Shown: one piece after another, positions 7,516-36,005 of the stretch
Layout of the letters: each line of letters opens with the position of its first letter
Position numbering within the stretch: position 1 is the stretch's first letter
NCBI GenBank assembly: GCA_009392915.1
Contig: CP045477.1
Coordinates: 160,001-224,000 of the forward strand
DNA from: Candidatus Forterrea multitransposorum CG_2015-17_Forterrea_25_41
GTDB taxonomy: Archaea > Iainarchaeota > Iainarchaeia > Iainarchaeales > CSSED10-239
DNA: 64,000 nt
Direction: 5' to 3'
The notes under the pieces: generated by a model
Seen by the model: only the letters and a program-made list of their open reading frames with translations
The model's database searches: none
Told to the model about the DNA's origin: nothing
Program-made: the position numbers and the translations under genes

Positions 7516-9327
7516 ATGGGTAAAACTTATTTAGAAACAATTAAATATTTAATTGTTGCAGATTTTCAAGTAGATGGTTTAGTTGAAAAACCAGATGTTA
7601 TTGGTGCTATTTTTGGACAATCTGAAGGTCTTTTAGGTTCACAACTTGATATTAAAGAACTTCAACAGAATGGAAAAATAGGAAGAATAGAAATTACAAC
7701 TAGTCATAATAACAATAAAACTTTTGGAACTTTAAAACTTCCATGTTCTCTTTCAATGGTTGAAACTGTAATCATAGGTGCATCTATTGAATCTATTGAT
7801 AAAGTTGGTCCATGTGACACTAGATTTACTATTAAGAAAGTAGAAGATACAAGAGGACTTAAAAGAAAACAAATTAAAGATAGAGCAATTGATCTTTTAG
7901 GAAAATTAATGCAAGAAGAAATTCCTGACACAAAAGAGCTTATGGAAGAAATTGTTGATACTTTTAAAACAAAAGAAATTGTTTTTTATGGTCCAGATAA
8001 ACTTCCAGCAGGCCCAACAATTGATGCAAATAAAGAAATTATTATTGTTGAAGGAAGAGCAGATGTAATAACTATGTTAAAATATGGATTTACAAATGTT
8101 ATTTCAACTGGTGGTGCTAGAGTTCCAGCTTCTCTTGCAAATATTTGTAAAGATAAAATGGTAACTTTATTTTTAGATGGAGATAGAGGTGCTGATATTC
8201 AACAAAATCAACTTGTAAGAGCAATTAAAGTTGATTATATTGCAAGAGCTCCAGATGGAAAAGAAGTTGAAGAATTAACACAAAAAGAAATTAATCAAGC
8301 ACTTAGAAGAAGAATTAAATCAACTTTTGTTTTAGATTTAAAAGATAAAAGTAAAGATGATAGAAATTCTAAAAGTTTTTCAACTCAACCAAATATTGTT
8401 AAAAATACTAAATTTTCAACAACAAATGATCATAAAGTAATTTCTTCAAGACCAAGCTTTGATTCAAGACCTAAGTTTGATGGAAATAGAAGAGATGATA
8501 GAAGAGATGATAGAAGAGATGATAGGTTTAAAGAAAAACCTGTAAATGATTTTTCAAGTATGCTTTCAAATATTCCTGATGTTGAAAGAATTGATGTTTC
8601 TAATGAAAGATCTAACTTTAGAGATAATAATAGAAATAAACATAATTCATTTCAAAAAGAAAGACCAAACTATGATAGAAACTCTAAATTTGATTCTTCT
8701 AAAAAGACTTTTGATTCTAAAAAGACTTTTGATTCAAGAAAACCTTTTGACTCAAAAAATAATTTAGAGGCTGATAAAGCATTAAATAAACCTTCTCAAA
8801 CTAAAATAACTTTAAAAGATAGACTTGAGAGTGCTTTAAAAGAATTTGATAGTAAATCACAAGGAGATAAGTCTTTAAAAGAAAGTGTTTCTGAATCTAT
8901 TGATAAAAAAATAAATACTTCTCTAAAAACTGAAGCTTCTTATCCTGTAAAAGCAGCTGAAGCTTTAAATAAACCAAAAGAAGAAGTTAAAGTAGAGGTT
9001 AAAAAGAAAAAACCTCTTGCAAAGATTACAGAAAAAAGTAAAAAGAATTTTTTAAAGATTCTAGAAGAAGTTGATGGTAAAGGACAATCTAGAATTTTAA
9101 ATGAAAAATTAAGAAGGATAGGAAGTTCAAAGAGTAGTGAACTTTTATCTAAAATAAAATCTTTTAAAACTGGTAAGATTTTTGCAGTTGTAACTGATCT
9201 TGAAGTTGATGTTGAGATTTTAAAACTTTTAAAAGAAAAAGATGCTTCTTTTATTGTTTCTCCAAAATCTAAAATTAAAGAAGATCAAGAGATAAACATT
9301 GTAACTTACAATGAATTAAAGAAATAG
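7516..9327 (+). CDS. dnaG: Archaeal DNA primase DnaG (Toprim domain) with a long low-complexity repeat-rich C-terminal half
   Basis: The N-terminal MGKTYLETIKYLIVADFQVDGLVEKPDVIGAIFGQSEGLLG and the Toprim block IIVEGRADVITMLKYGF...LFLDGDRGADI are characteristic. Internal repeats RRDDRRDDRRDDR and KKTFDSKKTFDSRKPFDSK. Confidence 0.8.
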   Translation: MGKTYLETIKYLIVADFQVDGLVEKPDVIGAIFGQSEGLLGSQLDIKELQQNGKIGRIEITTSHNNNKTFGTLKLPCSLSMVETVIIGASIESIDKVGPCDTRFTIKKVEDTRGLKRKQIKDRAIDLLGKLMQEEIPDTKELMEEIVDTFKTKEIVFYGPDKLPAGPTIDANKEIIIVEGRADVITMLKYGFTNVISTGGARVPASLANICKDKMVTLFLDGDRGADIQQNQLVRAIKVDYIARAPDGKEVEELTQKEINQALRRRIKSTFVLDLKDKSKDDRNSKSFSTQPNIVKNTKFSTTNDHKVISSRPSFDSRPKFDGNRRDDRRDDRRDDRFKEKPVNDFSSMLSNIPDVERIDVSNERSNFRDNNRNKHNSFQKERPNYDRNSKFDSSKKTFDSKKTFDSRKPFDSKNNLEADKALNKPSQTKITLKDRLESALKEFDSKSQGDKSLKESVSESIDKKINTSLKTEASYPVKAAEALNKPKEEVKVEVKKKKPLAKITEKSKKNFLKILEEVDGKGQSRILNEKLRRIGSSKSSELLSKIKSFKTGKIFAVVTDLEVDVEILKLLKEKDASFIVSPKSKIKEDQEINIVTYNELKK

Positions 9328-11965: not shown

Positions 11966-12037
11966 GCACTCGTAGTATAGTGGTTAGTATGGGAGCTTGC
12001 CAAGCTTTCGGCCCGGGTTCGACCCCCGGCGAGTGCA
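11966..12037 (+). tRNA. tRNA-Gly (anticodon GCC)
   Basis: Acceptor GCACTCG/CGAGTGC, anticodon arm GGAGC-TTGCCAA-GCTTT, T-arm CCGGG-TTCGACC-CCCGG, discriminator A. Confidence 0.85.
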
Positions 12038-12132: not shown

Positions 12133-12438
12133 ATGGTTAAAGATAAAAAAAAAGTTATTGAAAAAATAAATTTTTTAATCGATTTTGCAATTTCTCAAAA
12201 ACAAGAAAGTAATCCTTATATTTATGATTATATTAATATTTCTTTTAATTTAGCAAAAAAAATAAACTACAGGATGCCAAAAGAGATACATAGAAAAGTT
12301 TGCAAAAATTGTTTTTCTATAAGATCTTTAGAAAACACAAAGATTAGAACTTTAAGAGATAAGAAAAATGGTGTTATTGTAAAATCTATAAAGCTTCACT
12401 GTCTTTCCTGCAACCATATTAAAAAAATAAGAGTTTAA
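12133..12438 (+). CDS. rnp4: RNase P protein component Rpp21/Rpr2 (Rnp4), a zinc-ribbon protein
   Basis: Basic N-terminal helices (VKDKKKVIEKINFLIDFAI...AKKINYRMPKEIHRKVCKNC) and a C-terminal C-x2-C...C-x2-C ribbon (CKNC...CLSC). About 100 aa. Confidence 0.65.
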   Translation: MVKDKKKVIEKINFLIDFAISQKQESNPYIYDYINISFNLAKKINYRMPKEIHRKVCKNCFSIRSLENTKIRTLRDKKNGVIVKSIKLHCLSCNHIKKIRV

Positions 12439-12491
12439 TCTTCTTTATATGTTTAACACTCTTATATTTATTTTAAAATCTATTTTTTTAC

Positions 12492-12591
12492 AAAATCCTT
12501 ATATTTATAAATATTATGCCTAACATATAAGTATAATATATTTTAATAAATGATAGCTGATGTTTATAGATAGAATAAAAATTCAAAGAAA
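12492..12591 (+). promoter_or_regulatory. 100-nt promoter/leader block, copy A, identical to 15412-15511. It contains a TATA-like element (tttataaata) upstream of pilin-like gene A.
   Basis: Exact 100/100 identity with 15412-15511. The AT-rich TATA-like box lies about 30-40 nt upstream of the ORF. Confidence 0.6.
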
Positions 12592-14044
12592 GGTACAACC
12601 TTTTTTTGAAAAAAATGTTAACGAAAAAAGAAAAGCTATTAGTCCACTTATAGCAACCATTCTTTTAGTGGTTGTTGCCATAGCTATAATCGGTATTGTT
12701 CTTTCCTGGGGTAAAGGTTTTACAAACACAACTCTTTCTTCTGCAGATAATATTAATACCAAAAATTCTTTCACAGGTCTTGTTTGGTCTTTTGAAACTT
12801 TTGGAAATAATGTCTTGGTTGAAAATAAATCAAAACAAGATTTAAACATTACTGGTTATACTATTAACTCTCTTGATCATAATGGTTTTTGGATAAACTC
12901 ATATCATCCTTTAGAAACTACTTTATCAATTTCTCCTGGAACTTCAAACAATGTTCCTTTGATCTGTATGCCTGAGGGAAAATTTATTTTAACTCTAAAG
13001 ACATCCTCAAATGAAAATATACCTCTTAACATCTCTCCTTCGAAAACACTTTTAGGAGGAACTTGTGAAGAATATAATGTTTCTCTTTGGGAATTTGCAG
13101 CAGAAACTGGAAGTTATGAGATTAATGAGATTGCTTTAGAGCAGGGTAATAATTATAGTAATTATAATTTTTTATTTAGTTGGACTGAAGTAAGTGCTAC
13201 TATAAATGATTCTAATACATTTAGTTCAACAAGTGTTGGTGGAATCACTAAGCAAACTACATGGATGGAGGTAGGTAAGAGATATAAATTAAAAATTTCA
13301 GGGACAACAACCGCTTCAGGAATAGTTATATTTTCTGGAAACAACGGAACATATATAGGTTCTTTAACTACTGGCAATTTTAGTCAAACATTTAAAAAAA
13401 CAATACTTGCTGTAAATCCTGGTTTAGACTTATATATAAGGAATTCATCAGCAGGAGTTACAACAATTACTGAATTGTCAGTAATAGAAATTCCTCCCCT
13501 TCCTGATTTTAACACAGGCACAAAATATTTACAAAATACTACTTCAGGAACAACTGCTATTGAAAGTAAACAAGCTTATGGTGAATGGGAGTTTGATGTT
13601 TATAAAGGTAGTACATTAACCAATTCATTTGTAAAAATAATCTCAGATGCCATAATAGGCAGCGTAGGTGGAAATTCTTATACTATTCAATTTAATGTAG
13701 ATGAAGCATTAAAGTTATGGAGAGGTGGCACTGCCATTATGAGTACAGCAAATTCCTACATCTCCAAAAACACTTGGTACAGAATAAAAGTAGCAAGACT
13801 TCAAAGTTCTGGAACATTTGCAATTATAGTTCCTTCGATGACCACAACCTATCCAAAAGACACATTTGCAGTTTTCATAAAAGGTGGGGAGTTTGGAGAT
13901 GATTGGACTTTAGTAGATACAACAGGTGGAAGTGGAACAAACCCTGTCACAGACTCTACATACACTACAAGCAATTATTTTGTTGCAGACCTTGATGTTG
14001 GAGATAGAATAGCAAATATTAAAATGAAGGAGAGTGTTGACTAA
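12560..14044 (+). CDS. Type IV pilin-like (class III signal peptide, DUF361-like N-terminus) surface protein A with a large beta-rich extracellular domain. Mosaic paralog of 15480..17333.
   Basis: KRKA|ISPLIATILLVVVAIAIIGIVLSWGKGF matches the archaeal prepilin site [KR][GA]|, followed by a hydrophobic helix. It shares the N-terminal ~180 aa and C-terminal ~75 aa with paralog C. The annotated ATG may be upstream of the true start. Confidence 0.65.
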   Translation: MFIDRIKIQRKVQPFFEKNVNEKRKAISPLIATILLVVVAIAIIGIVLSWGKGFTNTTLSSADNINTKNSFTGLVWSFETFGNNVLVENKSKQDLNITGYTINSLDHNGFWINSYHPLETTLSISPGTSNNVPLICMPEGKFILTLKTSSNENIPLNISPSKTLLGGTCEEYNVSLWEFAAETGSYEINEIALEQGNNYSNYNFLFSWTEVSATINDSNTFSSTSVGGITKQTTWMEVGKRYKLKISGTTTASGIVIFSGNNGTYIGSLTTGNFSQTFKKTILAVNPGLDLYIRNSSAGVTTITELSVIEIPPLPDFNTGTKYLQNTTSGTTAIESKQAYGEWEFDVYKGSTLTNSFVKIISDAIIGSVGGNSYTIQFNVDEALKLWRGGTAIMSTANSYISKNTWYRIKVARLQSSGTFAIIVPSMTTTYPKDTFAVFIKGGEFGDDWTLVDTTGGSGTNPVTDSTYTTSNYFVADLDVGDRIANIKMKESVD

Positions 14045-14045
14045 A

Positions 14046-15383
14046 ATGTTTTCAAAAGTAAATAAAAAAGCTATTAGTCCACTTATAGCAACCATCCTTT
14101 TAGTGGTTGTTGCCGTAGCTATCATCGGTATTGTTCTTTCTTGGGGAAAAGGCTTTACAAACACAACTCTTTCAAAAGCTTCAAGTATTGAAGTTTATTC
14201 AGAATCAGAAATTGGTTTTTATTTAAATCTTCAAAACTCAATAAACGGAAGAACCACAGTTTCTTATAACCCTCCACAAAATACTACTTATAATAATCTA
14301 ACAATAGTTGGTTATGGCCTTTTAGGATATACAACAAACATAGTTCCTTTAGAACCTCCAATAACTATTTCAAAATCACAAACTGCAAATATTGATCATG
14401 GTATAATTTTACCTGAATTTGATTTAGTTTTATATTTAGATAACAATACTATGATAACTAAATTTAATTTAAAACAAGAAATTAAACAACCTTCTTCTTG
14501 TCCTGAAGGTTTTATTCCAGTTCCTGGAAATCATTTATATGGAACCATGAATGAAAGAGGTGGTTTTTGTGTAATGAAATATCATGCAAAAAATGACACT
14601 GGCTCAAAAATAAATTCAACTTGTATAACAGGTCTAGAAGGTTCTGATAGTAATCTAACAGTTAAATCAGTTCCAGAAATTGCTCCTTCAGTAAATATAA
14701 ATTATTGTGCTGCAAAAAAATCTTGTGAAAATTCAGGATATATTTTAATGAATAATTCTCATTGGATGACTATTGCAAGAAATATTGAACTAAATGAATT
14801 AAATTATGTTTCTGGAAATCTAGGTGAAGGCTTTATTTTTAGAGGGCATTATAATAATAATCCATCTTTAATTATTGAAGCAAATTCAGATGATTCAAAT
14901 AATTTTTATTTAATAAACAGTCCAAACTCAGATCAAAGAAGAACTTTATATTTATCTAATGGAGAAATAATTTGGGATTTTACTGGAAATGCATGGAATA
15001 TATTAGAAGATTTAGTTTTAATAAAGGATCATGCAGATGGTTTTTATACTTCTGATGATACTGAGTTTAATTCTGGTAATGATAATTTATTTCTAACGGA
15101 TTATTATAAAGGTAGTAATAATTATTATTTAAAATTTAATCAATTAGGTAATACTATTTTTAATTATAAAGATATTTATTTATTAAATTCAAAATACAAT
15201 GCTGTAAATAATGGTATTGGTATTTACCATGGAAATAGTAATAGAGGAAGTGTTTCTGAAACTATTACTTTTATGATGAGAGGTGGAGATAAACAAAATG
15301 GTCAATATTCTGGTTTAATGGAATTAACATTCCCTAATTTAAGTTCTAATGGAAATACAGTTGGATTTAGATGTGTGAAATAA
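14046..15383 (+). CDS. Type IV pilin-like signal peptide fused to an FGE-sulfatase (SUMF1/C-type-lectin-like fold) family domain
   Basis: MFSKVNKKA|ISPLIATILLVVVAVAIIGIVLSWGKGFTNTTL has the same mature N-terminus as the neighbours. Ordered FGE-sulfatase hallmarks: HWMTIARN, GEIIWDFTGNAWNILED (like GN.WEW), MMRGGDKQNG (like RGGSW) and terminal GFRCVK. The track start at 14034 is GTG. The ATG at 14046 is more likely. Confidence 0.55.
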   Translation: MFSKVNKKAISPLIATILLVVVAVAIIGIVLSWGKGFTNTTLSKASSIEVYSESEIGFYLNLQNSINGRTTVSYNPPQNTTYNNLTIVGYGLLGYTTNIVPLEPPITISKSQTANIDHGIILPEFDLVLYLDNNTMITKFNLKQEIKQPSSCPEGFIPVPGNHLYGTMNERGGFCVMKYHAKNDTGSKINSTCITGLEGSDSNLTVKSVPEIAPSVNINYCAAKKSCENSGYILMNNSHWMTIARNIELNELNYVSGNLGEGFIFRGHYNNNPSLIIEANSDDSNNFYLINSPNSDQRRTLYLSNGEIIWDFTGNAWNILEDLVLIKDHADGFYTSDDTEFNSGNDNLFLTDYYKGSNNYYLKFNQLGNTIFNYKDIYLLNSKYNAVNNGIGIYHGNSNRGSVSETITFMMRGGDKQNGQYSGLMELTFPNLSSNGNTVGFRCVK

Positions 15384-15411
15384 ATATATCTCTTTTTTTA
15401 AAAAATTATTA

Positions 15412-15511
15412 AAAATCCTTATATTTATAAATATTATGCCTAACATATAAGTATAATATATTTTAATAAATGATAGCTGATGTTTATAGATAGAATAAAA
15501 ATTCAAAGAAA
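15412..15511 (+). promoter_or_regulatory. 100-nt promoter/leader block, copy B, identical to 12492-12591
   Basis: Exact duplicate of copy A, sitting upstream of pilin-like gene C. Confidence 0.6.
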
Positions 15512-17333
15512 AGAAAAAACTTTTTTTGAAAAAAATGTTGACAAAAAAAGAAAAGCTATTAGTCCACTTATAGCAACCATCCTTCTTGTAGTTGTTGCTG
15601 TTGCCATCATCGGTATTGTTCTTTCTTGGGGAAAAGGTTTTACAAACACAACTCTTTCTTCTGCAGATAATGTTAATACCAAAAATTCTTTCACAGGTCT
15701 TATTTGGTCTTTTGAAACTTTTGGAAATAATGTTTTAGTTGAGAATAAATCAAAACAAGATTTAAATATTACTGGTTATACTATTAATTCTCTTGATCAT
15801 AATGGTTTTTGGATAAACTCTTATCATCCTTTAGAAACCACTCTTTCAATATCTCCTGGAACTTCAGATAATGTGTCTTTGATTTGTATGCCAGAGGGTA
15901 AATTTATTTTAACTTTAAAAACCTCAACAAATGAAAACATACCTCTTAACATCTCTCCTTCAAAAACAAGTAGAGGTTCTACTTGTGAGGAGTATAATGT
16001 TTCTCTTTGGGAGTTTGTAGCAGAAACTGGAAGTTATTCTATTAATACTTTTACAATGCAGGAAGGAGAACTTGTAACTAACGGTGGGTTTGAGACTGAT
16101 TTATCTGGTTGGTTAAGAACAAGTCATATTATTCAAAATAATGATGTTGCAGATGTTAATCTTATTGGCTCTGATTATATTTTAGAACAACAAAATGTTG
16201 TAGAAATGGGTAAAAGTTACTTAGTTACTTTTGAAATTAAAAACTATTATTCAGGTGCAGTTTATTTTTATAATGTTAATTTGCCAGGGGTAGGTAGTGG
16301 TTATACTGCAACTTCAAATGGGGTTTATGCACTAACATTTACATCTAGTGGAAATAACATCTTATTTCGAACTGTAACTAATTTTGTAGGATCTATTGAT
16401 AATATCTCAATAGTAGAAATCCCTCCTCTTGAAACAATAACCACAGGCACAAAATACTTAGAGAACACAACAGCAGGAACAACTGCTATTGAAAATAAAC
16501 AAGCTTATGGTACTTGGGAATTTGATGTTTATAAAGAAAATGCAAATTATCATTATACATATTTTATAAATTCTACCACAAATACAATGGATAATAGTTA
16601 TAGAATTACTTTAAAAAATTTTAATGCTTTAGATTTAAGAAAACAAGGTGATTCAACTTTAACATTATTATTAACTTCTGATAATTATATTCAAGATAAT
16701 ACTTGGTATAGAATAAAAGTTGCAAGACTTCAAAGCGAAGGTGTGTTTAACGACATACCTACTTTGCAGACTAGTGATATGGTGAATAGTGCAACACAAC
16801 CTTACCAATCATTTACAAGTAAGGGGAGATATGGATTCAGTGCTATTGCAAATGGAACTACAATTACTCATGCTAATACAGCAGATGAAATAGACCTTGT
16901 AAATACAGGAAAATACCTTGTAGAATTTGATTTAAAATTAAACAGCGGGATAGCCCCAGATGTAGCATTAGCAGCAAGTGTAACAAGTGGGTTGTATTCT
17001 AATTCAGTTCAATCTATTGTAGGGAGAAATAGTTTTATACTTACTGCAAGTAATTCAATTACAGGGATATTAAGGTTTTATAACAGTTCTACTGAGTCTG
17101 CAGACTACGAAGTTTCAAACTTAACAATCAGAAGAATCTACCCAAAAGACACATTTGCAGTATTTATTAAAGGTGGAGAGTTTGGAGATGATTGGACTTT
17201 AGTAGATACAACAGGTGGAAGTGGAACAAACCCTGTCACAGACTCTACATATACAACAAGCAATTACTTTGTAGCTGACCTTGATGCTGGAGATAGAATA
17301 GCTAATGTTAAAATAAAACCAAATATTGAATAA
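15480..17333 (+). CDS. Type IV pilin-like surface protein C with a CBM4_9-like carbohydrate-binding module. Mosaic paralog of A.
   Basis: Same signal and helix (KRKA|ISPLIATILLVVVAVAIIG). NGGFETDLSGWLRTSHI is the CBM_4_9 signature. Shared blocks with A include IEIPPLxxxTGTKYLxNTTxGTTAIExKQAYGxWEFDVYK, NTWYRIKVARLQS.G and the C-terminal YPKDTFAVFIKGGEFGDDWTLVDTTGGSGTNPVTDSTYTTSNYFVADLD.GDRIAN. Confidence 0.65.
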   Translation: MFIDRIKIQRKEKTFFEKNVDKKRKAISPLIATILLVVVAVAIIGIVLSWGKGFTNTTLSSADNVNTKNSFTGLIWSFETFGNNVLVENKSKQDLNITGYTINSLDHNGFWINSYHPLETTLSISPGTSDNVSLICMPEGKFILTLKTSTNENIPLNISPSKTSRGSTCEEYNVSLWEFVAETGSYSINTFTMQEGELVTNGGFETDLSGWLRTSHIIQNNDVADVNLIGSDYILEQQNVVEMGKSYLVTFEIKNYYSGAVYFYNVNLPGVGSGYTATSNGVYALTFTSSGNNILFRTVTNFVGSIDNISIVEIPPLETITTGTKYLENTTAGTTAIENKQAYGTWEFDVYKENANYHYTYFINSTTNTMDNSYRITLKNFNALDLRKQGDSTLTLLLTSDNYIQDNTWYRIKVARLQSEGVFNDIPTLQTSDMVNSATQPYQSFTSKGRYGFSAIANGTTITHANTADEIDLVNTGKYLVEFDLKLNSGIAPDVALAASVTSGLYSNSVQSIVGRNSFILTASNSITGILRFYNSSTESADYEVSNLTIRRIYPKDTFAVFIKGGEFGDDWTLVDTTGGSGTNPVTDSTYTTSNYFVADLDAGDRIANVKIKPNIE

Positions 17334-17543
17334 AAACCAAATATTTAGTAACTTTTAATTTTTTTAAACTATTTTTAACCATAAAGAAACATATTTAAAT
17401 AGAACTCTACCTATATTATATATTATTAGACTTTTTTATATTAGTTGTTTAAACAATAACTTTTTAAAAAAAAAGAATCTATAAAGATGAGAATATATTC
17501 TTATATAAAAGATATATTTGATATAAACATGAGGTGAGAACTC

Positions 17544-20098: not shown

Positions 20099-21391
20099 AT
20101 GTTTGGTCTTTTAAAAAAGAAATTCAAAGATTTGTCAGATAAAATATTAGGTAAATCTAAAGAAAAAATTGATTCTGAAGATCAAAGTCAAGAAGAAACT
20201 TCTTCTGATACTTCTAAGACTTTAGATGTTCCTGAAGAAAAATCTCCTGTTTCTAAAGAGCCAATATCTAATTCTGAAGAACTTTCTGTTCCTAAAGTTG
20301 AAGATGCTAAAGAAGAAATCCCTGTTCCTAAGGTTGAAGATGTTAAAGAAGAAAAATCTACTCCTAAGGTTGAAGATGTTAAAGAAGAAATCCCTATTCC
20401 TAAAGTTGAAGAAATTAAAGAAGAAAAACCTATTTTAAAAGAAGAAATAAAAGAAGATAAACAACCTTCAAAAGCATATACAGATTTAGAATCTAAAAAA
20501 GTTGAAGACGTAAAAAAAACAACTTTTACAAAAATAAAAAGTTTATTTTCATCAAAAATAAAATTATCTGAAAAAGAAATATCTGAATTTTTAGATGATT
20601 TTGAAATTTCTTTACTTGAAGCAGATGTTTCTATTGATTCTTCAACAGCAATTATTGAAGATTTAAAAAAAAGATTAGTTAATGCTTCTTTTTCAAAAAC
20701 AAATATCTTAGAAGATATTAAAAAAAATATTAAAGAAACTTTAAAAGAACAATTAAATATTGATTGTGATATTAATAATTATATTTCTCAAAAACAAAAT
20801 GAACCTTTAATAATTTTAATAATTGGACCTAATGGTGCTGGAAAAACAACAACTATTTCTAAATTTGCAAATCTTTATAAAAATCAAGGTAAATCTGTGG
20901 TTCTAGCTTCTTCAGATACTTTCAGAGCAGGAAGTATTGATCAATTAGAAGTGCATGCAAAGAGATTAGGTGTAAAAGTTGTAAAACAAAATTATGGTTC
21001 AGATCCTGCTGCAGTTGCTTTTGATGCAGTTGCTTCTGCTAAAGCAAATAAAAACGATGTTGTTTTAATTGATACTGCTGGTAGACAAGATACAAATATT
21101 AATCTAATGCAAGAACTCTCAAAAATAAAAAGAGTAGTAAAACCAGATCTTACAATTTATATTGGAGAATCTCAATCTGGACAAACAATTGTTGAACAAA
21201 TACAAAAGTTTGATAAAGAAATAGGTGTTACTGGAGTAATTTTAACAAAGATTGATACTGACCCAAAAGGTGGAGTTGCAATTTCTATTCTTAATGAAAT
21301 TAAAAAACCTATTTTCTATATTGGTACAGGTCAAGAGTATAATGATATAGAAAAATTTTCTCCAGAATATATTATTGAAAGAATTGTTTAG
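20099..21391 (+). CDS. ftsY: Signal recognition particle receptor FtsY
   Basis: N-terminal acidic A-domain with four VPKVEDVKEE(I/K)P repeats. The NG domain has GPNGAGKTTTISKFA, DTFRAGSIDQL and DTAGRQ motifs. Confidence 0.9.
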   Translation: MFGLLKKKFKDLSDKILGKSKEKIDSEDQSQEETSSDTSKTLDVPEEKSPVSKEPISNSEELSVPKVEDAKEEIPVPKVEDVKEEKSTPKVEDVKEEIPIPKVEEIKEEKPILKEEIKEDKQPSKAYTDLESKKVEDVKKTTFTKIKSLFSSKIKLSEKEISEFLDDFEISLLEADVSIDSSTAIIEDLKKRLVNASFSKTNILEDIKKNIKETLKEQLNIDCDINNYISQKQNEPLIILIIGPNGAGKTTTISKFANLYKNQGKSVVLASSDTFRAGSIDQLEVHAKRLGVKVVKQNYGSDPAAVAFDAVASAKANKNDVVLIDTAGRQDTNINLMQELSKIKRVVKPDLTIYIGESQSGQTIVEQIQKFDKEIGVTGVILTKIDTDPKGGVAISILNEIKKPIFYIGTGQEYNDIEKFSPEYIIERIV

Positions 21392-23619: not shown

Positions 23620-24483
23620 TTGTGTATTTTAATGATTGAAATAATTTTATTTATTAAACTTTTTATAATATTAATTGCCACAAGTATAGGTGCTTGGACA
23701 GACTATAAAACAGGGTATATCTATAACTGGATAACTTTTCCTTTAATTATCTTAGGTTTATTATTATTAATTTTAGAATCTTTTGTTTTATTTAATCTTG
23801 GTTGGTTTTATTTTTTAAAAGTGTTTATAATTGGTTTATTAATATATGGTATTGGTTATTTATTTTATTATTTTGGAAAATTAGGAGGAGGAGATGTAAA
23901 ATTATTTTTAGGAATTCATCTTTTAGTTCCTTATGTAAATGGTCAACTTTTAATTTTATGGGTTTTAATTTTATCTTCTCTATTATCTGTCTTAATTGTT
24001 TCAATTAAATATTTATTTATTCTTTTTAGAAAAATTACATTTACTGAATTTAAAAAAATTATAAAAACAAGAACCTCTAAAATGATTATTTATTTATTAA
24101 TGTTTATTTTTTTTGTTTTTCTCTTATATTCTGCAATCTATAATGTTGGTTTTTCAAAATATTATTACTTATTATTAATTCCTATATTTATAGGTCTTTT
24201 AACAGTTTTATTTGAAGAAGAAATTAAGAAATATATTTATCTTAAAAGAAAAGTTTTAAGGAAAATAGAAGAAGGAGATGTTTTAGCAATTGAGTTTTTA
24301 TCAAAAGAACTTCTTAATAAACTAAATATGGGAAATAGACAAGTTATTGAAGAAAAAGATTTATTGATTATTAAAAATTTAGATGTTAAATCTTTACCTA
24401 TATATGATAATCTTCCAAGATTTGGACCTTATATACTTTTAGGTTTTATTTTTTCTTTTTTATATTTATTTTTCTTATTTTAA
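23620..24483 (+). CDS. A24-family prepilin/preflagellin peptidase (PibD/FlaK-like), a polytopic membrane protein
   Basis: The first catalytic Asp is in IGAWTDYKTGYI and the second in YFGKLGGGDVKLFLG (GxGD-like). Multiple TM helices. It is the likely processor of the KRKA| and KG|A signal peptides in this window. Confidence 0.55.
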   Translation: MCILMIEIILFIKLFIILIATSIGAWTDYKTGYIYNWITFPLIILGLLLLILESFVLFNLGWFYFLKVFIIGLLIYGIGYLFYYFGKLGGGDVKLFLGIHLLVPYVNGQLLILWVLILSSLLSVLIVSIKYLFILFRKITFTEFKKIIKTRTSKMIIYLLMFIFFVFLLYSAIYNVGFSKYYYLLLIPIFIGLLTVLFEEEIKKYIYLKRKVLRKIEEGDVLAIEFLSKELLNKLNMGNRQVIEEKDLLIIKNLDVKSLPIYDNLPRFGPYILLGFIFSFLYLFFLF

Positions 24484-27994: not shown

Positions 27995-28140
27995 TTTATT
28001 TAAAAAAGAAAATAAATATTTCTCTCCACTAATAAATATACTTAATCCTTTATTTAAGGGAGGGGAAAAAAAGGTCTTTCCATAAAAGAAAGTACCTTTC
28101 TAATAGATGCATATTTCTAAATAATATATATCCTTTAACA

Positions 28141-28190
28141 AATATATCTCTTTTCAAGCAGGGGGTAGCTGGCCGAGTAAATTAATTTAG
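28141..28190. repeat. GC-rich 50-nt direct repeat, copy R1 (aatatatctcttttcaagcagggggtagctggccgagtaaattaatttag), upstream of the radC-like gene when read on the minus strand
   Basis: 50/50 identical to R2 at 28856-28905. The first 30 nt are identical in R3 at 29943-29972. The GC-rich core is anomalous in this AT-rich genome. Confidence 0.8.
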
Positions 28191-28513
28191 TATTTAAATC
28201 TCTTTTCATAACTTTTATGATTAAACCATTCTATAATAATAGATATAATTTTAATTTGATCACTTTTAATTGTGTATACTAATCTCCATCCATTAAATAG
28301 ATTATATTTCCAAAGGTTTGTAATTTTATATTTTTTAATATATTCTTTTGGCCATAATTTTTTTGAAATTTTAATTCCAGAAGTAGGATCTTTTTTAAGA
28401 GTTTCAATTGCTTTTAGAATATTTTTATACAAATCATGATTTTCTTTAAGGTTTTCAAAATTAATTTCTAATTCTCTTGAAACAAATACAACATAATTTT
28501 CTTTATCAATCAT
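28187..28513 (-). CDS. relE: RelE/ParE-superfamily toxin (type II toxin-antitoxin system)
   Basis: 108 aa. ...LWPKEYIKKYKITNLWKYNLFNGWRLVYTIKSDQIKIISIIIEWFNHKSYEKRF follows the RelE/YafQ pattern (W.Y.L...WRLVY.I......I....H). Overlaps the upstream antitoxin ORF by 4 nt. Confidence 0.65.
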   Translation of the reverse strand: MIDKENYVVFVSRELEINFENLKENHDLYKNILKAIETLKKDPTSGIKISKKLWPKEYIKKYKITNLWKYNLFNGWRLVYTIKSDQIKIISIIIEWFNHKSYEKRFKY

Positions 28514-28779: not shown

Positions 28780-28855
28780 ATTATATAACTTTATATAAGT
28801 TAAATTTTTAAATATTTTTATTTGCCTAAAGTATATATTAATATGTGTTTTAAAA

Positions 28856-28905
28856 AATATATCTCTTTTCAAGCAGGGGGTAGCTGGCCGAGTAAATTAA
28901 TTTAG
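28856..28905. repeat. GC-rich 50-nt direct repeat, copy R2, upstream of the antitoxin-toxin operon
   Basis: Identical to R1. Confidence 0.8.
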
Positions 28906-29904
28906 AACTTTTTTTAATTCTTTTTCATTTGGTAAAAATGTACTTAATTTTTTAGGAATTTTAGATAATTTGTATTCTGCTATTCCTAATGGATATTTAT
29001 TATTTAATAAAGAATATTCTACTATTGTCTTATTCTTAGATTTACATATTAATAATCCAATAGTTTCTTTATCTTCTTTTCTTTTCATATCTTTATTTAT
29101 TACATTAATATAAAACCCTATTTGGCCAAGATATTCTGGTTTGAATTCAGTAATTTTTAATTCAATTACTATAAATCTTTTTAAAATATAATTATAAAAT
29201 AATAAATCTATATAAAAATCTTTATTTCCAACATTAATTTTAAATTGTTTTCCAATAAATGCAAATCCTTTTCCTAATTCTATTAAAAATTTAGATATAT
29301 TTGAAACAATAGATTCTTCTAATTCTTTTTCATTAAATTCTTCTTTTAAATGTAAAAAATCTAATATATAATTTTCTTTAAAATAATTTAAAATAAATTT
29401 TGAATCTTTTTTTGGAAGTGTGTTTAAAAAATTAATGTTTATGTTTTTTTTTCTTGCATATAAATTTAATTCTATTTGATGTTCTAATAATACTTTAGAC
29501 CATAAATTATTAATTGATTCTTGAATATAGAAAAGTGCTTCTTCTTTATTTTTAATTTTATCTAGAATTAATCTTATTTGATTCCAAGGTAATTGTGCCA
29601 CAACTTGTGGCACATTTTCTGTTTTAAAAAATAAATAGAATTTTCTCATATAAAATAAATTTCTTCTCGAAAAACCTTTTACATTAGGGAATTCTTTTCT
29701 TAAATCTTTTTCTATTTGCCCAATTAAATTTATTCCCCAATTACTTTCTTTTTGTTTAAAATAAATTTCTTTTCCAAGAGTGTAATAAAGATTAATTAAT
29801 TCTGAATTTACTTTTAATATTGCATTTTGTCTTGATTTAATAATGTTTTCTTTAATTTTAGAAATAAATTCTATATATTCTTTATTAAATATATTTTTTT
29901 CCAT
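28897..29904 (-). CDS. YhcG-like DUF1016 protein with a C-terminal PD-(D/E)XK nuclease domain
   Basis: The N-terminal region resembles DUF1016 (KENIIKSRQNAILKVNSELINLYYTLGKEI). The C-terminal DLLFYNYILKRFIVIELKITEFKPEYLGQIGFYIN carries the D...E.K restriction-endonuclease-like motif. Confidence 0.65.
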   Translation of the reverse strand: MEKNIFNKEYIEFISKIKENIIKSRQNAILKVNSELINLYYTLGKEIYFKQKESNWGINLIGQIEKDLRKEFPNVKGFSRRNLFYMRKFYLFFKTENVPQVVAQLPWNQIRLILDKIKNKEEALFYIQESINNLWSKVLLEHQIELNLYARKKNININFLNTLPKKDSKFILNYFKENYILDFLHLKEEFNEKELEESIVSNISKFLIELGKGFAFIGKQFKINVGNKDFYIDLLFYNYILKRFIVIELKITEFKPEYLGQIGFYINVINKDMKRKEDKETIGLLICKSKNKTIVEYSLLNNKYPLGIAEYKLSKIPKKLSTFLPNEKELKKVLN

Positions 29905-29942
29905 ATCTTATCTATTCTAGATATATTTTATATTTTTACAAA

Positions 29943-29982
29943 AATATATCTCTTTTCAAGCAGGGGGTAGCTAGCTGAGTAA
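29943..29982. repeat. GC-rich direct repeat, copy R3 (the first 30 nt identical, then agctgag in place of ggccgag), upstream of the yhcG-like gene
   Basis: aatatatctcttttcaagcagggggtagct is identical, followed by a variant tail agctgagtaaa. Confidence 0.75.
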
Positions 29983-30083
29983 AAAAGATTAAATTTTAAT
30001 TTCTATAGCCAATAACCTACATTAACATTATAAACTCTTTCTCTCTTAAATATATTATTAAATATAAAAAATAAGATTATATT

Positions 30084-31578: not shown

Positions 31579-32142
31579 TTATTTAAAATCCATATTTATT
31601 TTAATTTCTTCTAAAACAGCAGTAATAAATTCATTTAAGGGTATATTTAGTTTAGTTTCACATAATCTTATTTCTTCTCTTGAAACAGCTGCTGCAAATG
31701 TTTTGTCTTTAAATTTTTTAATAATAGATTTTGTTTCTGCATTTTTAATTTCTTTATCTGGTCTCATTAAAACATATGCTCTAATAATTCCAGTTAAGCC
31801 ATCTACAGAAAAGAGAGCATTTTCTACAGTTTCTTTTCTTTCTATTTTCAAAGCATCGTTATGTGATTTAATAATATCTATTATCTCTTGAGAGATTCCT
31901 TCTTCTTGTAATATTTTTTCTCCAACTAAACAATGCACATTAATATCTCCATTATATTTTTCAATATCAATGTCATGGAGTGCACCAATCAAAAACCATT
32001 CTTCTTGTTTTTCTTCTGGTAATTTAAGATATTTAGAAACTCCTTTCATTCCATAACCTACCATTAAACAATGTTCAAGGTTTGCTTTTTCTTTAATATG
32101 TTTGTTTAATATTTCTATAGTTTTTTCTTTTGTATTGTTCAT
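31579..32142 (-). CDS. HD-domain phosphohydrolase
   Basis: His...HD...D motif (LMVGYGMKG...FLIGALHDIDIEKYNGD). 187 aa, lying 15 nt upstream of the hicA-like gene. Confidence 0.55.
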   Translation of the reverse strand: MNNTKEKTIEILNKHIKEKANLEHCLMVGYGMKGVSKYLKLPEEKQEEWFLIGALHDIDIEKYNGDINVHCLVGEKILQEEGISQEIIDIIKSHNDALKIERKETVENALFSVDGLTGIIRAYVLMRPDKEIKNAETKSIIKKFKDKTFAAAVSREEIRLCETKLNIPLNEFITAVLEEIKINMDFK

Positions 32143-32154
32143 ATTTTAAAACCT

Positions 32155-35100
32155 TTAATTTTGATATTTATATCTTACAATAACAATTCCAGAACCACCA
32201 TTTCCACCATTTGCTGATGAATTTGTTGCTGATCCGTTTCCACCATTTCCTGTGTTTGCAGCAGCAGAAGATGCATCTGAGTGAGCATCACCACCTTTAG
32301 CATAAGTGTTTCCCCAAATGGTCATACCAGGACCTCCATTAGGTACTGTTCCAGGTCCTCCCGCTCCTCCTCCTCCACCAGCTCCAACATTAACAACAGA
32401 GGTTGCACCAGGATATCCAAATCCTGTATTAGGATACCCATCATTTGTACTTGGTTGTGTTGCACTTCCACCATTTGCAGGCACTGCACTATAAAGGTTT
32501 GCACCTCCACCTGAACCACCTGATGTACCATCTCTGGAAGGATTATCTCTTGATCCTCCACCACCACCACCATATGCAATTAAATTTTTAAATACAGAAT
32601 TATTTCCATTATTTCCTGTAAAGTCTTGATTTGTAGAACCTGTTCCTCCTGCTCCTACAGTAACAGTAATATTTCCAGTACTTGAAAGTGTGTAGTCTTC
32701 AACATATACAAGACCTCCAGCACCTCCTCCTCCAGGATTTCTTAAAGTATTTGTTCCTGCTTTTCCAGCACCTCCACCACCACCAACAACTAAAACATCT
32801 ACTTTTCCCTCTCCTAATGTTGTTACATTAAATGTTCCACTTGATGTAAAAGTATGATATTTATAGTCTCCAGAAGTTGTAACTGTTCCTCCTGTTGCTT
32901 CTAAATATCCTTGATTTATTGTTAAGTTTATAGATGCTCCTGCTGTTTGATATTGATCATTTACTATTAAAGTTATCTTATGTTCTCCTGATGATAGATT
33001 AGTTGTTGAAAAGTTACAAGTTGAACTTAAAGTTCCATCTATATTTGAATCCCAATAACATGAATGGCTTCCAGATGGATTTGTAATTGTTGAATTAAAA
33101 GTTAGGTTTTCGCCATAATTATGTGTTGATGAGTTTGAGGGAGTATCAATTGTAACTGATATTGGATTAGGTATGCTACGCATAAATATCCAAGATATAC
33201 CTACAATTCCAATTTCTTCAACTCTTAATAAAGGAATTGTACCATCGGGATCAAATGAAGAAATACTGACTGATGTAAAATCTCCACTTGTTCCTGTTAC
33301 AACTGTTGAATTATTAATTATTAAATTTCCTGAATTTGAAGAATAAGATGCAGCAGTAGATCCTAATCCATAATAGACTCTTAATTGGTTTATGTCACTA
33401 GGTCCATTCCATGTATTCATTGTAAGTAATCCATTATCTGCAGGTCCACTATAGAAAAATGATAAAAATTCAGGTCTTCTTGTATAACTTGCAAAATTAA
33501 CATTTACTCCATCATTATAATGTGTATAATAATCTAGATTATAACCATATGTAGATAGATCTGTAGTTAATATACGGTTACCATTCCATGCAGGATAAGA
33601 TGAGTCATAAGTATTATCTGTTGAAAATGAAGAATACAACATCCAACCTCCTCCATTATCTTCCATATTACAATAAATTTGAGTTGGAACTCCGTCTTTT
33701 AATATCCAATAAACTCCGTTTGTAGCACTTGGATTGTTATTTTTAATATACATTGCAGAAGGTGCTGCTTTTTCTGAAGAACTTCCATCTAAATCTATAA
33801 TTGTTATTGAAATATTTTTATCTATAGTTTGTTCTTGATCAGTAACAGATAATGTTATTGTATGTTCTCCAACTGTTAAACTACTTGTTGAAAAATCACA
33901 ATTACTTGATAAACTTCCATCTATAGATGATACCCAAGAACAACTATAACTTCCGTTTTCATTTTCTATTTGAGAATTAAAATCAATTGCTTCTCCAAAA
34001 CTGAATGTTTGTAAGTTTGTAGGAGAATTAATATTTATTGTAAGTTCTTCAACATATTCATTTTTAGTATTATCATAAATTGCTTTAATTTCATTTAAAT
34101 TTAAACTTCTGCCATATAGTCTATAGTCTGAAATCATTCCTTTAAAATATCTTGTATTTGTAGAATTTATTCCAAATTTAACTCCTCCACCTTGTGTTTC
34201 ATAACTATAAATTTCTTCTAATGTTTTTTCTAAGTTTCCATTAATATAACCTTTTAAAGTTTTTAATGTTTCATCATATGTAACTGTATAATTAATCCAT
34301 TTATTTTCTTCAACAGGATCTGAAAGCTCATAAGTTGAATATCCTCCATCTAAATCTCTCCATCTTATTTCCATTTTTTTATCAACAGGATTAATACTAA
34401 CTCTAAGATTATTTTTTTGAGACCAAAAGAAACTTTCATGTTCTAAACTTTGATTTTCTGTATAATATATCCATCCATTTATTGTAAATGAACTATAATC
34501 ACCTACATTTGAAACATTAATATAATCATTAGCTCCATCTAAATTTAATTTAGAACTACTATTCCAATTTGCAGTTCCAACAATACTTCCATTATTAGAA
34601 TTTCCTGAATAATCGTATACTGTGCTTCCTTCTCCTTCATCTATTTTCCAATATCCAATTATTTGATAATCAATACAGTCAAGTACATTATAGTTATTTG
34701 TTTTAATAGGTTTTACAATTTCTCTCCCTTTATCTGTATTTAATTTTAATATATAATTTTCTTCAGGAGCACATACAACATCTATTTCTTTAGTTTCTTT
34801 TTTTTCAATAGTTATTGGTTCTTCAAAAAATATATTTTTATTTAAATATTCTGTATCAACAGCATCTGATGCAATAAAATAACTAGTTAATACTAAATCT
34901 TGATTAATATTGTTGTTTGAAAGTACAATACTTTGATTTACAACTTCTTCAATTAAGATTTCATCTCCAATTCTTTGTATCTCAATTATAGGAATATTAT
35001 TATTTTTATCCACAACACTAAATCTTAATTCTTCAAGTCCAGGCATAATATCAATGTAGTTATAAAAAAGAATATTATTATTATAATCAATATTATAAAG

Positions 35101-35463
35101 TAGACTTGTTTCTTGTCTATTAATTATAAGTGATCCTATTTGGCTTTGTGTTTTTAGATTTTCAATACTTCTTTTATTTTTAATTTCTTGTCTTAAATAA
35201 AGATTACTTGAGTTATTATCAACTGTAATTGGGTCACTTAAATCTAAATAAACTTCTTTATAGCTTCCAACTTCTGAATCTTTTAAATCTGTTAAAATAT
35301 CATTAATATATGCTAAGTTATCTCTGTTGTTTTTCATTCTTTGTGAATCTTCTAGAGTTCCAAAATAATTCATTGCAAAATAAATAAATATACCTAAAAA
35401 TATAATACTTACAAAAAGAATTGCTATTCCTGAAAATAAAGATGTTACTCCTTTTTGATTCAT
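32155..35463 (-). CDS. Giant pilin-signal adhesin (1102 aa) with a class III signal peptide, LamG/ConA-like domain, PKD-like domains, a fibrinogen-related domain and a Gly-rich C-terminal beta-rich domain
   Basis: Signal MNQKG|VTSLFSGIAILFVSIIFLGIFIYFA. LamG_3 region IGYWKIDEGEGSTVYDYSGNSNNGSIVG...TINGWIYY. PKD-like repeats ending GEHTITLSVTDQEQT / GEHKITLIVNDQYQT. Fibrinogen motif GVYWILKDGVPTQIYCNMEDNGGGWMLY. C-terminal VDVLVVGGGGGAG...GGGGAGG...GSGIVIVRYKY. Confidence 0.7.
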   Translation of the reverse strand: MNQKGVTSLFSGIAILFVSIIFLGIFIYFAMNYFGTLEDSQRMKNNRDNLAYINDILTDLKDSEVGSYKEVYLDLSDPITVDNNSSNLYLRQEIKNKRSIENLKTQSQIGSLIINRQETSLLYNIDYNNNILFYNYIDIMPGLEELRFSVVDKNNNIPIIEIQRIGDEILIEEVVNQSIVLSNNNINQDLVLTSYFIASDAVDTEYLNKNIFFEEPITIEKKETKEIDVVCAPEENYILKLNTDKGREIVKPIKTNNYNVLDCIDYQIIGYWKIDEGEGSTVYDYSGNSNNGSIVGTANWNSSSKLNLDGANDYINVSNVGDYSSFTINGWIYYTENQSLEHESFFWSQKNNLRVSINPVDKKMEIRWRDLDGGYSTYELSDPVEENKWINYTVTYDETLKTLKGYINGNLEKTLEEIYSYETQGGGVKFGINSTNTRYFKGMISDYRLYGRSLNLNEIKAIYDNTKNEYVEELTININSPTNLQTFSFGEAIDFNSQIENENGSYSCSWVSSIDGSLSSNCDFSTSSLTVGEHTITLSVTDQEQTIDKNISITIIDLDGSSSEKAAPSAMYIKNNNPSATNGVYWILKDGVPTQIYCNMEDNGGGWMLYSSFSTDNTYDSSYPAWNGNRILTTDLSTYGYNLDYYTHYNDGVNVNFASYTRRPEFLSFFYSGPADNGLLTMNTWNGPSDINQLRVYYGLGSTAASYSSNSGNLIINNSTVVTGTSGDFTSVSISSFDPDGTIPLLRVEEIGIVGISWIFMRSIPNPISVTIDTPSNSSTHNYGENLTFNSTITNPSGSHSCYWDSNIDGTLSSTCNFSTTNLSSGEHKITLIVNDQYQTAGASINLTINQGYLEATGGTVTTSGDYKYHTFTSSGTFNVTTLGEGKVDVLVVGGGGGAGKAGTNTLRNPGGGGAGGLVYVEDYTLSSTGNITVTVGAGGTGSTNQDFTGNNGNNSVFKNLIAYGGGGGGSRDNPSRDGTSGGSGGGANLYSAVPANGGSATQPSTNDGYPNTGFGYPGATSVVNVGAGGGGGAGGPGTVPNGGPGMTIWGNTYAKGGDAHSDASSAAANTGNGGNGSATNSSANGGNGGSGIVIVRYKYQN

Positions 35464-35993: not shown

Positions 35994-36005
35994 ATTTTAA
36001 AACCT

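Follow-up and report, generated by a model that had tools for sequence, protein, structure and literature searches.

Modular pilins, including fusions to concanavalin A (ConA)–like and PF13385 domains, are widespread in bacteria (PMC8179133). In archaea, adhesin-like or galactose-binding domains have been noted on class III signal peptide proteins in a survey of type IV filaments (TFF; bioRxiv 10.64898/2026.04.22.720090). Proteins with LamG/concanavalin domains from Candidate Phyla Radiation (CPR) bacteria, DPANN archaea, and the viruses linked to them have been read as adhesion factors (PMC11310336), and ultrasmall cells are joined to host cells by pili-like appendages (PMC7906910). Here, we describe three consecutive plus-strand genes, A, B, and C, found in 64,000 nucleotides (nt) of the genome of Candidatus Forterrea multitransposorum (contig CP045477.1, positions 160,001 to 224,000; this whole stretch is referred to below as the window, and coordinates are those of the window). 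Each of them encodes a modular pilin-like protein in which a binding-type module sits on a pilin module. The reading that we prefer, with a probability of roughly 70%, is that A, B, and C are co-regulated, paralogous attachment adhesins of this kind, shaped by module grafting and by recombination between paralogs over evolutionary time. While the modular pilin adhesin class is known, what this locus adds is a binding module from a large unannotated family that is mainly encoded by phages. The genes and their parts, all on the plus strand, are as follows.

Gene A, 12560-14044, +: 494 amino acids (aa), modular pilin; matches the NCBI hypothetical protein GW835_02850
Gene A, first part: leader, residues 1-26; class III cleavage motif KRKA/ISPL (slash, cleavage site); hydrophobic helix; pilin beta-sandwich to ~residue 172
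Gene A, remaining part: joint motif LWEFAAETGSYEIN, residues 176-189; jelly roll, 190-~313; LamG-like domain without insert, 314-494
Gene B, 14046-15383, +: 445 aa, short leader MFSKVNKKA/ISPL, pilin module, C-terminal domain of a putative FGE-sulfatase/SUMF1-like family ending GFRCVK
Gene C, 15480-17333, +: 617 aa, modular pilin
Gene C, first parts: pilin module, 15558-15995; joint motif, 16005-16046; jelly roll 1, 16047-16427
Gene C, remaining parts: LamG-like N-terminal part, 16428-16799; inserted jelly roll, 16800-17138; LamG-like C-terminal part, 17139-17330

The mature N-terminus KAISPLIATILLVVVA[IV]AIIGIVLSWGKGFTNTTLS is encoded by all three genes, as had been noticed in the initial sequence-only reading of this DNA. 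The NCBIfam archaellin/type IV pilin N-terminal model TIGR02537 gave 22.3, 23.6, and 23.0 bits for A, B, and C, respectively, with a cut-off of 20. The bacterial N-methylation pilin motif (IPR012902) had no Pfam match in them at E ≤ 0.1. Since their motif is instead of the archaeal type, the proteins would work like bacterial modular pilins but stand outside that family. In the AlphaFold2 model of C, calculated from a 40-sequence alignment (pLDDT 85.4, pTM 0.79), a long helix at residues 20-51 is followed by a beta-sandwich at residues 75-158 (pLDDT mostly 75-92). Foldseek matched the pilin part of this model to the Pyrobaculum type IV pilin 8fk7_A with a probability of 1.00 and a TM(target) of 0.47. 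The N-terminal module of A and C is 40-41% identical to short pilins (150-180 aa) that occur by themselves. The two modules thus exist separately, which is how a modular pilin is recognized: pilin-only proteins are represented by P0067 (168 aa) and P0068 (178 aa), and module-only proteins by P0006, P0009, and P0010 (454-461 aa). A homolog of the enzymes that process such proteins is encoded nearby:

23620-24483, +: Peptidase_A24 (type IV leader/prepilin peptidase) homolog, 287 aa, 6 kb downstream; PF01478, 41.2 bits (cut-off, 26.5)

Together, the TIGR02537 scores, the pilin fold of the model, and the peptidase homolog bear out the description of the products as pilin-like, and the A24 protein is, judging by its sequence and position, the candidate processing enzyme of A, B, and C. 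Arrays of two to four pilin-like genes in tandem were also found in other archaeal contigs. In L004 (8001-12808), four such genes follow each other, and in L015 (791-4026), there are two, with near-identical N-terminal helices and different LamG-type loads; the helix regions of genes 3 and 4 of L004 are 94% identical at the nucleotide level. The tandem layout is thus recurrent in the gene family and not special to the present locus.

The model of C resolves three jelly rolls beyond the pilin module: the first at residues ~190-316, the second at 317-440 and 554-617, and the third, at 441-553, inserted into the second. A follows the same plan without the insert; the first jelly rolls of A and C are 23% identical. 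The jelly-roll fold of both modules matches solved lectins and carbohydrate-binding modules (CBMs). PF13385 or related profiles have no match in the A and C modules; the PF13385 matches of long homologs fall in other, N-terminal domains of those proteins. For gene B, the grafted domain was tentatively assigned through its family. Among 15 aligned full-length relatives, which are 26-52% identical to B, 11 match PF03781 (FGE-sulfatase), the best with E = 1.1e-10; B itself has no match at E ≤ 0.01, and its AlphaFold2 model is poor beyond the pilin module (pLDDT 51.8). Across the family, the same pilin module is fused to LamG/jelly-roll, FGE-sulfatase, DUF285, and PKD modules. At this level, the proposal that variable binding modules are carried on a constant pilin scaffold holds.

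A and C had been described as sharing their first ~180 and last ~75 residues almost perfectly, together with some internal islands, and as diverging completely in between, a pattern that was attributed to recombination or gene conversion between paralogs. Comparison of the two genes by blastn revealed four collinear blocks, while gene B shares with A and C just nt 14037-14173.

5′ block, 12492-13126 with 15412-16046, +: 635 nt, 90.9% identical, ungapped; promoter and codons 1-189, ending just past the joint motif
Island 1, 13478-13607 with 16407-16536, +: 80.8% identical nt; IEIPPL..TGTKYL.NTT.GTTAIE.KQAYG.WEFDVYK
Island 2, 13769-13806 with 16698-16735, +: 92% identical nt; NTWYRIKVARLQ
3′ block, 13846-14046 with 17135-17335, +: 89% identical nt; last 65 codons, that is, the C-terminal strands of the LamG-like domain
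N-terminal helix-coding segment of B, 14037-14173, +: ~88% identical nt to A 12606-12738 and C 15526-15658

The shared ends are therefore present as described (91% and 89% identical at the nucleotide level), except that the C-terminal share is ~65 and not ~75 aa. To compare the ages of the segments, synonymous (dS) and nonsynonymous (dN) divergence was calculated by the Nei-Gojobori method. For codons 1-189 of A and C, dS is 0.355 and dN is 0.053; for the last 65 codons, dS is 0.385. Because a GC content of 25% imposes a strong codon bias, we also compared the fraction of identical residues that are encoded by an identical codon with the fraction expected from codon usage. This same-codon fraction was 0.81 (135/167) in the 5′ block, with 0.54 expected (z = 7.5), and 0.79 (44/56) in the 3′ block, with 0.55 expected (z = 3.8). 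In the variable segments pooled, it was 0.47 (20/43) with 0.50 expected (z = −0.5), i.e., these segments are synonymously saturated. Thus, recent common history, at a similar dS, is confined to the two ends of A and C, which makes the pair a true mosaic; uniform divergence along the genes, as expected of a simple old duplication, is not what is seen. The claim of complete divergence between the blocks goes too far: the middles of the two proteins are still homologous jelly-roll/LamG folds at 23-24% identity, with an extra inserted domain of ~113 aa in C.

The same values speak to another explanation, a plain old tandem duplication without recombination, in which purifying selection kept the ends while the middle diverged fast. 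The islands and the C-terminal block are indeed conserved at the protein level throughout the family, phages included. We compared the 3′ block of C with homologs that are 73-88% identical to it in aa sequence. The same-codon fraction was 0.47 for P0055 (88% aa identity), 0.43 for P0003, and 0.48 for P0010, compared to 0.79 for A (z = 4.1 in this comparison). Since the codon excess is specific to the A-C pair and missing in homologs of equal aa identity, the 3′ block has a recent shared ancestry. A similar control for the N-terminal helix gave 0.77 for A-C and 0.36-0.47 for other homologs. Over residues 61-172, which form the globular part of the pilin module, A and C are 93% identical, but identity to any other protein found is at most 38-49%. 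A duplication without recombination is made improbable by the ends of A and C (0.79-0.81 same codons, versus 0.43-0.48 for C and its equally similar homologs), by the middle being at chance, by 68 nt of noncoding DNA that are 100% identical upstream of the two genes, and by the collinearity of the C module, insert included, with phage proteins considered below.

The two internal islands behave differently from the ends. They had been included in the block pattern attributed to recombination (IEIPPL...WEFDVYK and NTWYRIKVARLQS), but at the protein level, they are 77% (island 1) and 87% (island 2) identical between A and C, versus 81-100% between A or C and distant phage homologs; for island 1, the A-P0004 identity is 81% and the C-P0004 identity is 88%. 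The C-terminal block is 88% identical between A and C and 85-86% identical to phage homologs. The same-codon fraction of island 1 is 0.78 (z = 2.8), but it is raised with several distant homologs too (0.65-0.77), a point that agrees with the old duplication considered above; that of island 2, which is too short for the test, is not significant. Since the islands are equally conserved in distant phage homologs and the codon signal of island 1 is not specific to A and C, they are best read as a conserved fold core and not as recombination tracts. The mosaic is thus retained for the gene ends, the promoter, and the N-terminus of B. In the latter, the first ~45 codons have a same-codon fraction of 0.80-0.82 with A and C (0.45 expected, z = 4.3-4.5), while the remainder of the B pilin module is ~42% identical to A and C, which makes this a second mosaic junction. 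The 5′ breakpoint of the A-C mosaic (13126/16046, residue 189) is directly past the joint motif, and the 3′ block begins where the chain re-enters the LamG-like domain after the insert of C. The breakpoints lie at domain borders; therefore, the exchanged unit is whole domains.

The most recent trace of exchange may be a block of 100 nt, which, as first noted, is exactly identical upstream of A and C (12492-12591 = 15412-15511, 100/100 nt, with two copies only in the window). The relevant features are as follows.

Repeat copy 1, 12492-12591, +: 68 nt upstream of the gene A ATG and first 32 coding nt
Repeat copy 2, 15412-15511, +: identical promoter-like DNA and first 32 nt of gene C
TATA-like boxes in copy 1: TTTATAAATA, 12505-12514; TATAATATAT, 12532-12541
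T7 run after the gene B stop codon, 15393-15399, +: candidate archaeal oligo-T terminator splitting an A-B unit from C; read from the sequence, putative function
T7 run after the gene C stop codon, 17360-17366, +: likewise read from the sequence, putative function

The identity extends no further on either side, and a 70-nt probe from the repeat finds two sites in the window, with 0 expected. Since the adjoining DNA is ~9% diverged, perfect identity over 100 nt, 68 of them noncoding, is unexpected; the permutation probability of such a run inside a 635-nt alignment with 58 mismatches is P = 0.0016. Upstream DNA of homologs P0036, P0003, and P0021 has only generic A/T-rich TATA-like strings in common with the block, so that no element shared across the family accounts for the identity. 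It is most simply read as a recent short conversion tract, though an unusually strict regulatory constraint may be responsible instead. An imperfect inverted repeat (12502-12520 with 12556-12572; also at 15422-15492) spans the ATG, one arm lying in the TATA-like region and the other around the start codon. Folded over 140 nt, this DNA has an energy of −26 kcal/mol, better than that of shuffled sequences (z = −4.9). The 5′ arm includes part of the likely TATA box, and the structure may thus be absent from the transcript. An Rfam scan of the window reported six tRNAs only and no known RNA family in the repeat block. The start of gene B is most likely the ATG at 14046 rather than the GTG at 14034. 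Because this ATG is located 1 nt past the stop codon of A, genes A and B are probably, judging from the spacing, on one transcript.

Three further observations concern this kind of upstream DNA. The Rpr2 gene contains, at 12211-12231, 21 nt that are 90% identical to the start of the block (AATCCTTATATTTAT...), a similarity that could be due to chance in AT-rich DNA. One assembly of the locus (L008; NCBI JAACSP010000001.1) ends at window position 12505, inside the 100-nt repeat, by which the assembler was presumably confounded. In L009, three tandem copies of TTTACTTTATAGCTA are present at ~7930-7990, upstream of the gene for the pilin-like protein P0036.

The sequence-only reading had gone on to propose a surface-variation system. 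In its strongest form, the middles of A and C would be exchanged continually by gene conversion, as in Neisseria pilE/pilS, altering adhesin specificity within the population. In favor of this are the real mosaic of ages, the 100-nt tract without a single mismatch, conserved flanks that could act as arms in recombination, and the coincidence of the breakpoints with domain borders. However, both copies are complete and have promoters, and a repeat search of the whole 64-kb window detected no silent, promoterless, or partial cassettes and no further copies of A or C. No other protein with the A/C N-terminal module was found in a collection of 5.8 billion proteins, which includes the annotation of this genome, and protein searches returned no relatives of this module above ~49% identity outside this population. 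The DNA of the cassette is identical in three independent assemblies (L006, L007, and L008), with 0-1 single-nucleotide differences in up to 13.8 kb and none within the cassette. The exact C protein was found in 81 blocks of the collection and on 43 contigs. In clusters at 90% identity, the only C variants were M193L and P585H, each on a single contig; A had no variants, and B had one with a changed 8-aa C-terminus, all counted from consensus assemblies, in which rare variants may escape. Lastly, the shared blocks are already at a dS of ~0.36-0.39, and the exchange is thus old. A programmed or active surface-variation switch at the cassette is not supported by these observations, and we consider ongoing exchange of the middles very improbable.

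A diversity-generating retroelement (DGR) acting on gene B was considered separately, given the putative FGE-sulfatase-type fold and the GFRCVK end of its product. It was rejected: no template repeat was found in the 64 kb and no reverse transcriptase among the Pfam-scanned open reading frames (ORFs).

We next consider the origin of the grafted module of A and C. Residues 173-617 of C are collinear, insert included, with proteins that have no pilin module, at 45-60% identity depending on the segment; the alignment of the module family used for searches (A3) has 45-51% identity. The pilin-less proteins come in three forms: proteins of 430-460 aa beginning MSKIKNWQKGTGSYKI.E; proteins of 200-320 aa that lack the insert, the first jelly roll, or both (P0055, P0059); and proteins of 900-1040 aa that carry the module at the C-terminal side of further LamG domains. 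At every boundary examined, the module opens with the joint motif W..GTGSY.I.E, pilin fusions (LWEFAAETGSYEIN) included, and the conserved C-terminal block of the family, FAVFIKGG..GGSGTNPV..DLD.GDR, is present in A and C. The family profile scores C at 647 bits and A at 407 bits. An exhaustive search with this profile matched 1685 cluster representatives at E ≤ 1e-3, of which 1060 remained at E ≤ 1e-10 and 380 at E ≤ 1e-30; among the best 150 matches, 5 were pilin fusions. A single-protein scan of IMG/VR gave no match to the module, while the alignment-based scan identified 41 contigs that encode it; by tblastn, none of 50,697 GenBank phage records matched the module. Among species-representative genomes scanned with A3, the module was found in Bacteroidota, Gracilibacteria, and Saccharibacteria contigs of metagenome-assembled genomes and in a few uncultured archaea. 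The neighborhoods of the homologs are of the tailed-phage type, with the following genes.

L002: terminase large subunit
L001: HNH and head-tail adaptor
L012: major capsid and cement protein
L024: portal, MuF, capsid, tail tube
L010 and L026: NinG, Dam, YqaJ; 39.6-kb contig, also present in IMG/VR as a genome
138-kb contig: dCMP deaminase, type II topoisomerase subunits

PHROG profiles detected little else among the phage neighbors than terminase, HNH, head-tail adaptor, “virion structural protein,” and peptidase. By parsimony, the pilin fusions would be a minor offshoot of a mainly phage-borne family, and the module was most likely captured from the tailed-phage pool by fusion at the joint motif, with transfer in the direction from phage to cell. 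At 0.31-0.32, the GC content of the cassette is closer to that of the phage genes (0.34-0.38) than to that of its flanks (~0.24); its third-position GC content is host-like (0.15-0.18).

That the cassette itself is virus-encoded or the remnant of an integrated virus, its proteins being viral receptor-binding proteins, is extremely improbable. The module family is mostly phage-borne, and the GC content of the cassette (0.30-0.32) is higher than that of its flanks (~0.24), in a window that is AT-rich (GC ~0.20-0.33; genome ~25% GC). A tRNA gene is also located close to the cassette:

tRNA-Gly, 11966-12037: 0.5 kb upstream of the cassette
RNase P subunit Rpr2 gene, 12133-12438

However, A and C are located among archaeal housekeeping genes and not in a viral genome. 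The cassette, with its three consecutive ORFs, has tRNA-Gly and Rpr2 on one side and S19e, L31e, eIF6, prefoldin, and FtsY/SRP54 genes on the other; no other viral gene is nearby, and no integrase or att-like repeat flanks it. The class III signal peptide and the pilin module are cellular and missing from the phage homologs.

Taken as co-regulated modular pilin-like adhesins, the three proteins could work as follows. Two transcription units, A-B and C, would start from the identical promoters inside the repeat block, and A, B, and C would thus be made together as a standing repertoire of binding specificities. The products would be exported and cut at KA/ISPL by the A24 peptidase encoded nearby, and the hydrophobic helix would hold them either in the membrane or in a filament resembling a type IV pilus, the tip being the probable site. 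The load of A consists of two jelly rolls, one CBM-like and one ConA/LamG-like, to which C adds a third inside the LamG domain, while B would carry an FGE-sulfatase/C-type-lectin-like domain. The presumed ligands are glycans of the host cell, given a small-genome, AT-rich archaeon that, from its size, GC content, gene content, and relatives, looks DPANN-like and is probably episymbiotic. In evolutionary terms, a duplication or conversion at dS ~0.36 would still mark both ends of A and C, whose middle would either have been exchanged by recombination with a diverged family member or be much older; the first ~45 codons of B would have been converted from A or C, or the reverse.

A more far-reaching version can be envisaged, which we regard as speculative and rather unlikely: that the archaeon grafted a whole receptor-binding-type phage module onto a pilin, with the joint motif and the near-invariant C-terminal strands acting as universal recombination or structural junctions at which cells and phages trade specificities. 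If this is true, a symbiont and phages draw host-recognition modules from one pool and possibly aim them at the same host surfaces.

Several points weigh against the preferred reading of A, B, and C. The Pfam model of the pilin N-terminus, PF07790 (Pilin_N), gives 15.3-16.6 bits, below its gathering threshold of 25.2, and aligns over its first 30-42 positions only. For a class III signal peptide, the leader of A and C, at 26 aa, is long, yet a similar leader is present in P0032 and P0034. Pfam scans of the ~30 larger ORFs of the window, which covers 64 kb of a ~0.84-Mb contig, detected neither a pilus ATPase nor a platform gene. Since the modules of A and C have no Pfam or PHROG match, it is the fold that suggests carbohydrate binding by these proteins. 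The nearest phage homolog is ~50-60% identical; thus, the transfer would be old, with its direction argued from parsimony. A virion role of the phage homologs would follow from gene position, among neighbors that mostly could not be annotated.

Some of these points agree with the proteins not being pilus subunits. They could be lectins anchored in the membrane or displayed on a pseudopilus through the class III route, like the sugar-binding proteins of the Sulfolobus bindosome, and serve, for example, in substrate capture instead of host attachment. The long leader, the CBM/lectin-like fold, and the lack of pilus assembly genes adjoining the cassette would fit this, as would the bulk of the C-terminal loads (320-445 aa), which could not be packed along a filament shaft. 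On the other hand, the N-terminal module has a pilin fold and is homologous to stand-alone short pilins, and bacterial modular pilins of similar size are thought to sit at the pilus tip (PMC8179133). We consider this alternative rather unlikely; it touches localization and role only and is compatible with the findings on anatomy and evolution.

Other features of the window are listed here for completeness.

32155-38414, −: second cluster of three surface-protein genes (802, 176, and 1102 aa)
28126-28195, 28841-28910, and 29928-29997: ~70-nt element in three copies (79-100% identical), its core CAAGCAGGGGGTAGCTGGCCGAGTAAA GC-rich and the DNA around it AT-rich
52402-54924, −: 840-aa ORF with an intein (Intein_splicing and LAGLIDADG_3 homing endonuclease)
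38740-40188, +: RuBisCO large-subunit homolog, in a genome that is otherwise reduced-looking
20276-20455: 36-nt repeat, four or five copies in tandem (12-aa units EE..PVPKVED.K), near the N-terminal end of an FtsY/SRP-receptor-like gene (20099-21391)

In the second surface-protein cluster, the large proteins have Laminin_G_3, Toxin_R_bind_N, and Gly_rich_2 matches, a fibrinogen-like GGGWT motif, and a partial TafC-like match. The N-termini are class III-like by eye (QRGA/SEILSYILVIF, EKGA/ANLFSYFLYIF, and QKGV/TSLFSGIAILF), and no pilin model matched them. The GC content of this region reaches 0.335 (at 32001-34000), and it contains internal 927-nt repeats. The copies of the ~70-nt element flank two small genes and a gene for a YhcG/DUF1016 PD-(D/E)XK nuclease; it is not matched by Rfam, and neither strand folds significantly.

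How ultrasmall DPANN archaea recognize and attach to their hosts is largely unknown, and A, B, and C are concrete, testable candidates: pilin-anchored, lectin-like, and apparently co-regulated by duplicated promoters. Their link to a very large uncharacterized phage family suggests a traffic in attachment specificities between phages and episymbionts. Should the family prove to be a receptor-binding module, its annotation would help to read many phage and CPR/DPANN genomes. There is also a point of method: at 25% GC, islands shared by paralogs need to be checked against codon bias and outgroup homologs before they are called recombination tracts.

Among the systems to which the locus can be compared, Neisseria pilE/pilS is similar in having conserved 5′ and variable 3′ parts of pilin genes and recombination between copies. 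Here, unlike in Neisseria, no silent cassettes were found in the window and no population variation is seen among the assemblies compared, both copies are of the expressed type, the units are whole domains, and the exchange is old. The FGE-sulfatase-type fold of the B family is the usual target fold of DGRs, and surface proteins of DPANN and CPR with this or a C-type-lectin fold are reportedly diversified by DGRs, as described by Paul et al. in 2015 and 2017. The B family likewise has an FGE-sulfatase-like C-terminus ending GFRCV, although neither template repeat nor reverse transcriptase was found in the window.

Solved CBM or lectin modules of phages, such as the Dit CBM2 of Lactobacillus phage J-1 (5ly8), the receptor-binding domain of gp23 of mycobacteriophage TM4 (9n6a), and Douge gp23 (8zdo), are related to the A and C modules by fold only. 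The true homolog family (MSKIKNWQKGTGSYKI... proteins) is, unlike these, uncharacterized, and in A and C, it is a cellular pilin that carries the module.

Archaeal type IV pilins and class III proteins, such as 8fk7 of Pyrobaculum calidifontis and UpsA, have the same N-terminal motif, hydrophobic helix, and beta-sandwich, with an A24 peptidase in the genome; the M. maripaludis Epd locus with its galactose-binding class III protein and the Sulfolobus bindosome were also compared. In contrast to archaeal structural pilins, A, B, and C are far larger, their match to Pilin_N is subthreshold, and the window has no recognizable TFF operon.

Among the bacterial modular pilins, Streptococcus sanguinis PilC (pilin and ConA-like lectin) and PilB (pilin and vWA) likewise consist of a small pilin module, a short linker, and a bulky ligand-binding module (PMC8179133). 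LamG/ConA-like (PF13385-type) grafts are among the commonest in this class, a role as tip adhesins has been proposed for its members, and several are encoded side by side, as here. What sets A, B, and C apart is their archaeal class III signal peptide (TIGR02537), a load of two to three jelly rolls of a phage family, and the duplicated, identical promoters in front of two of the paralogs.

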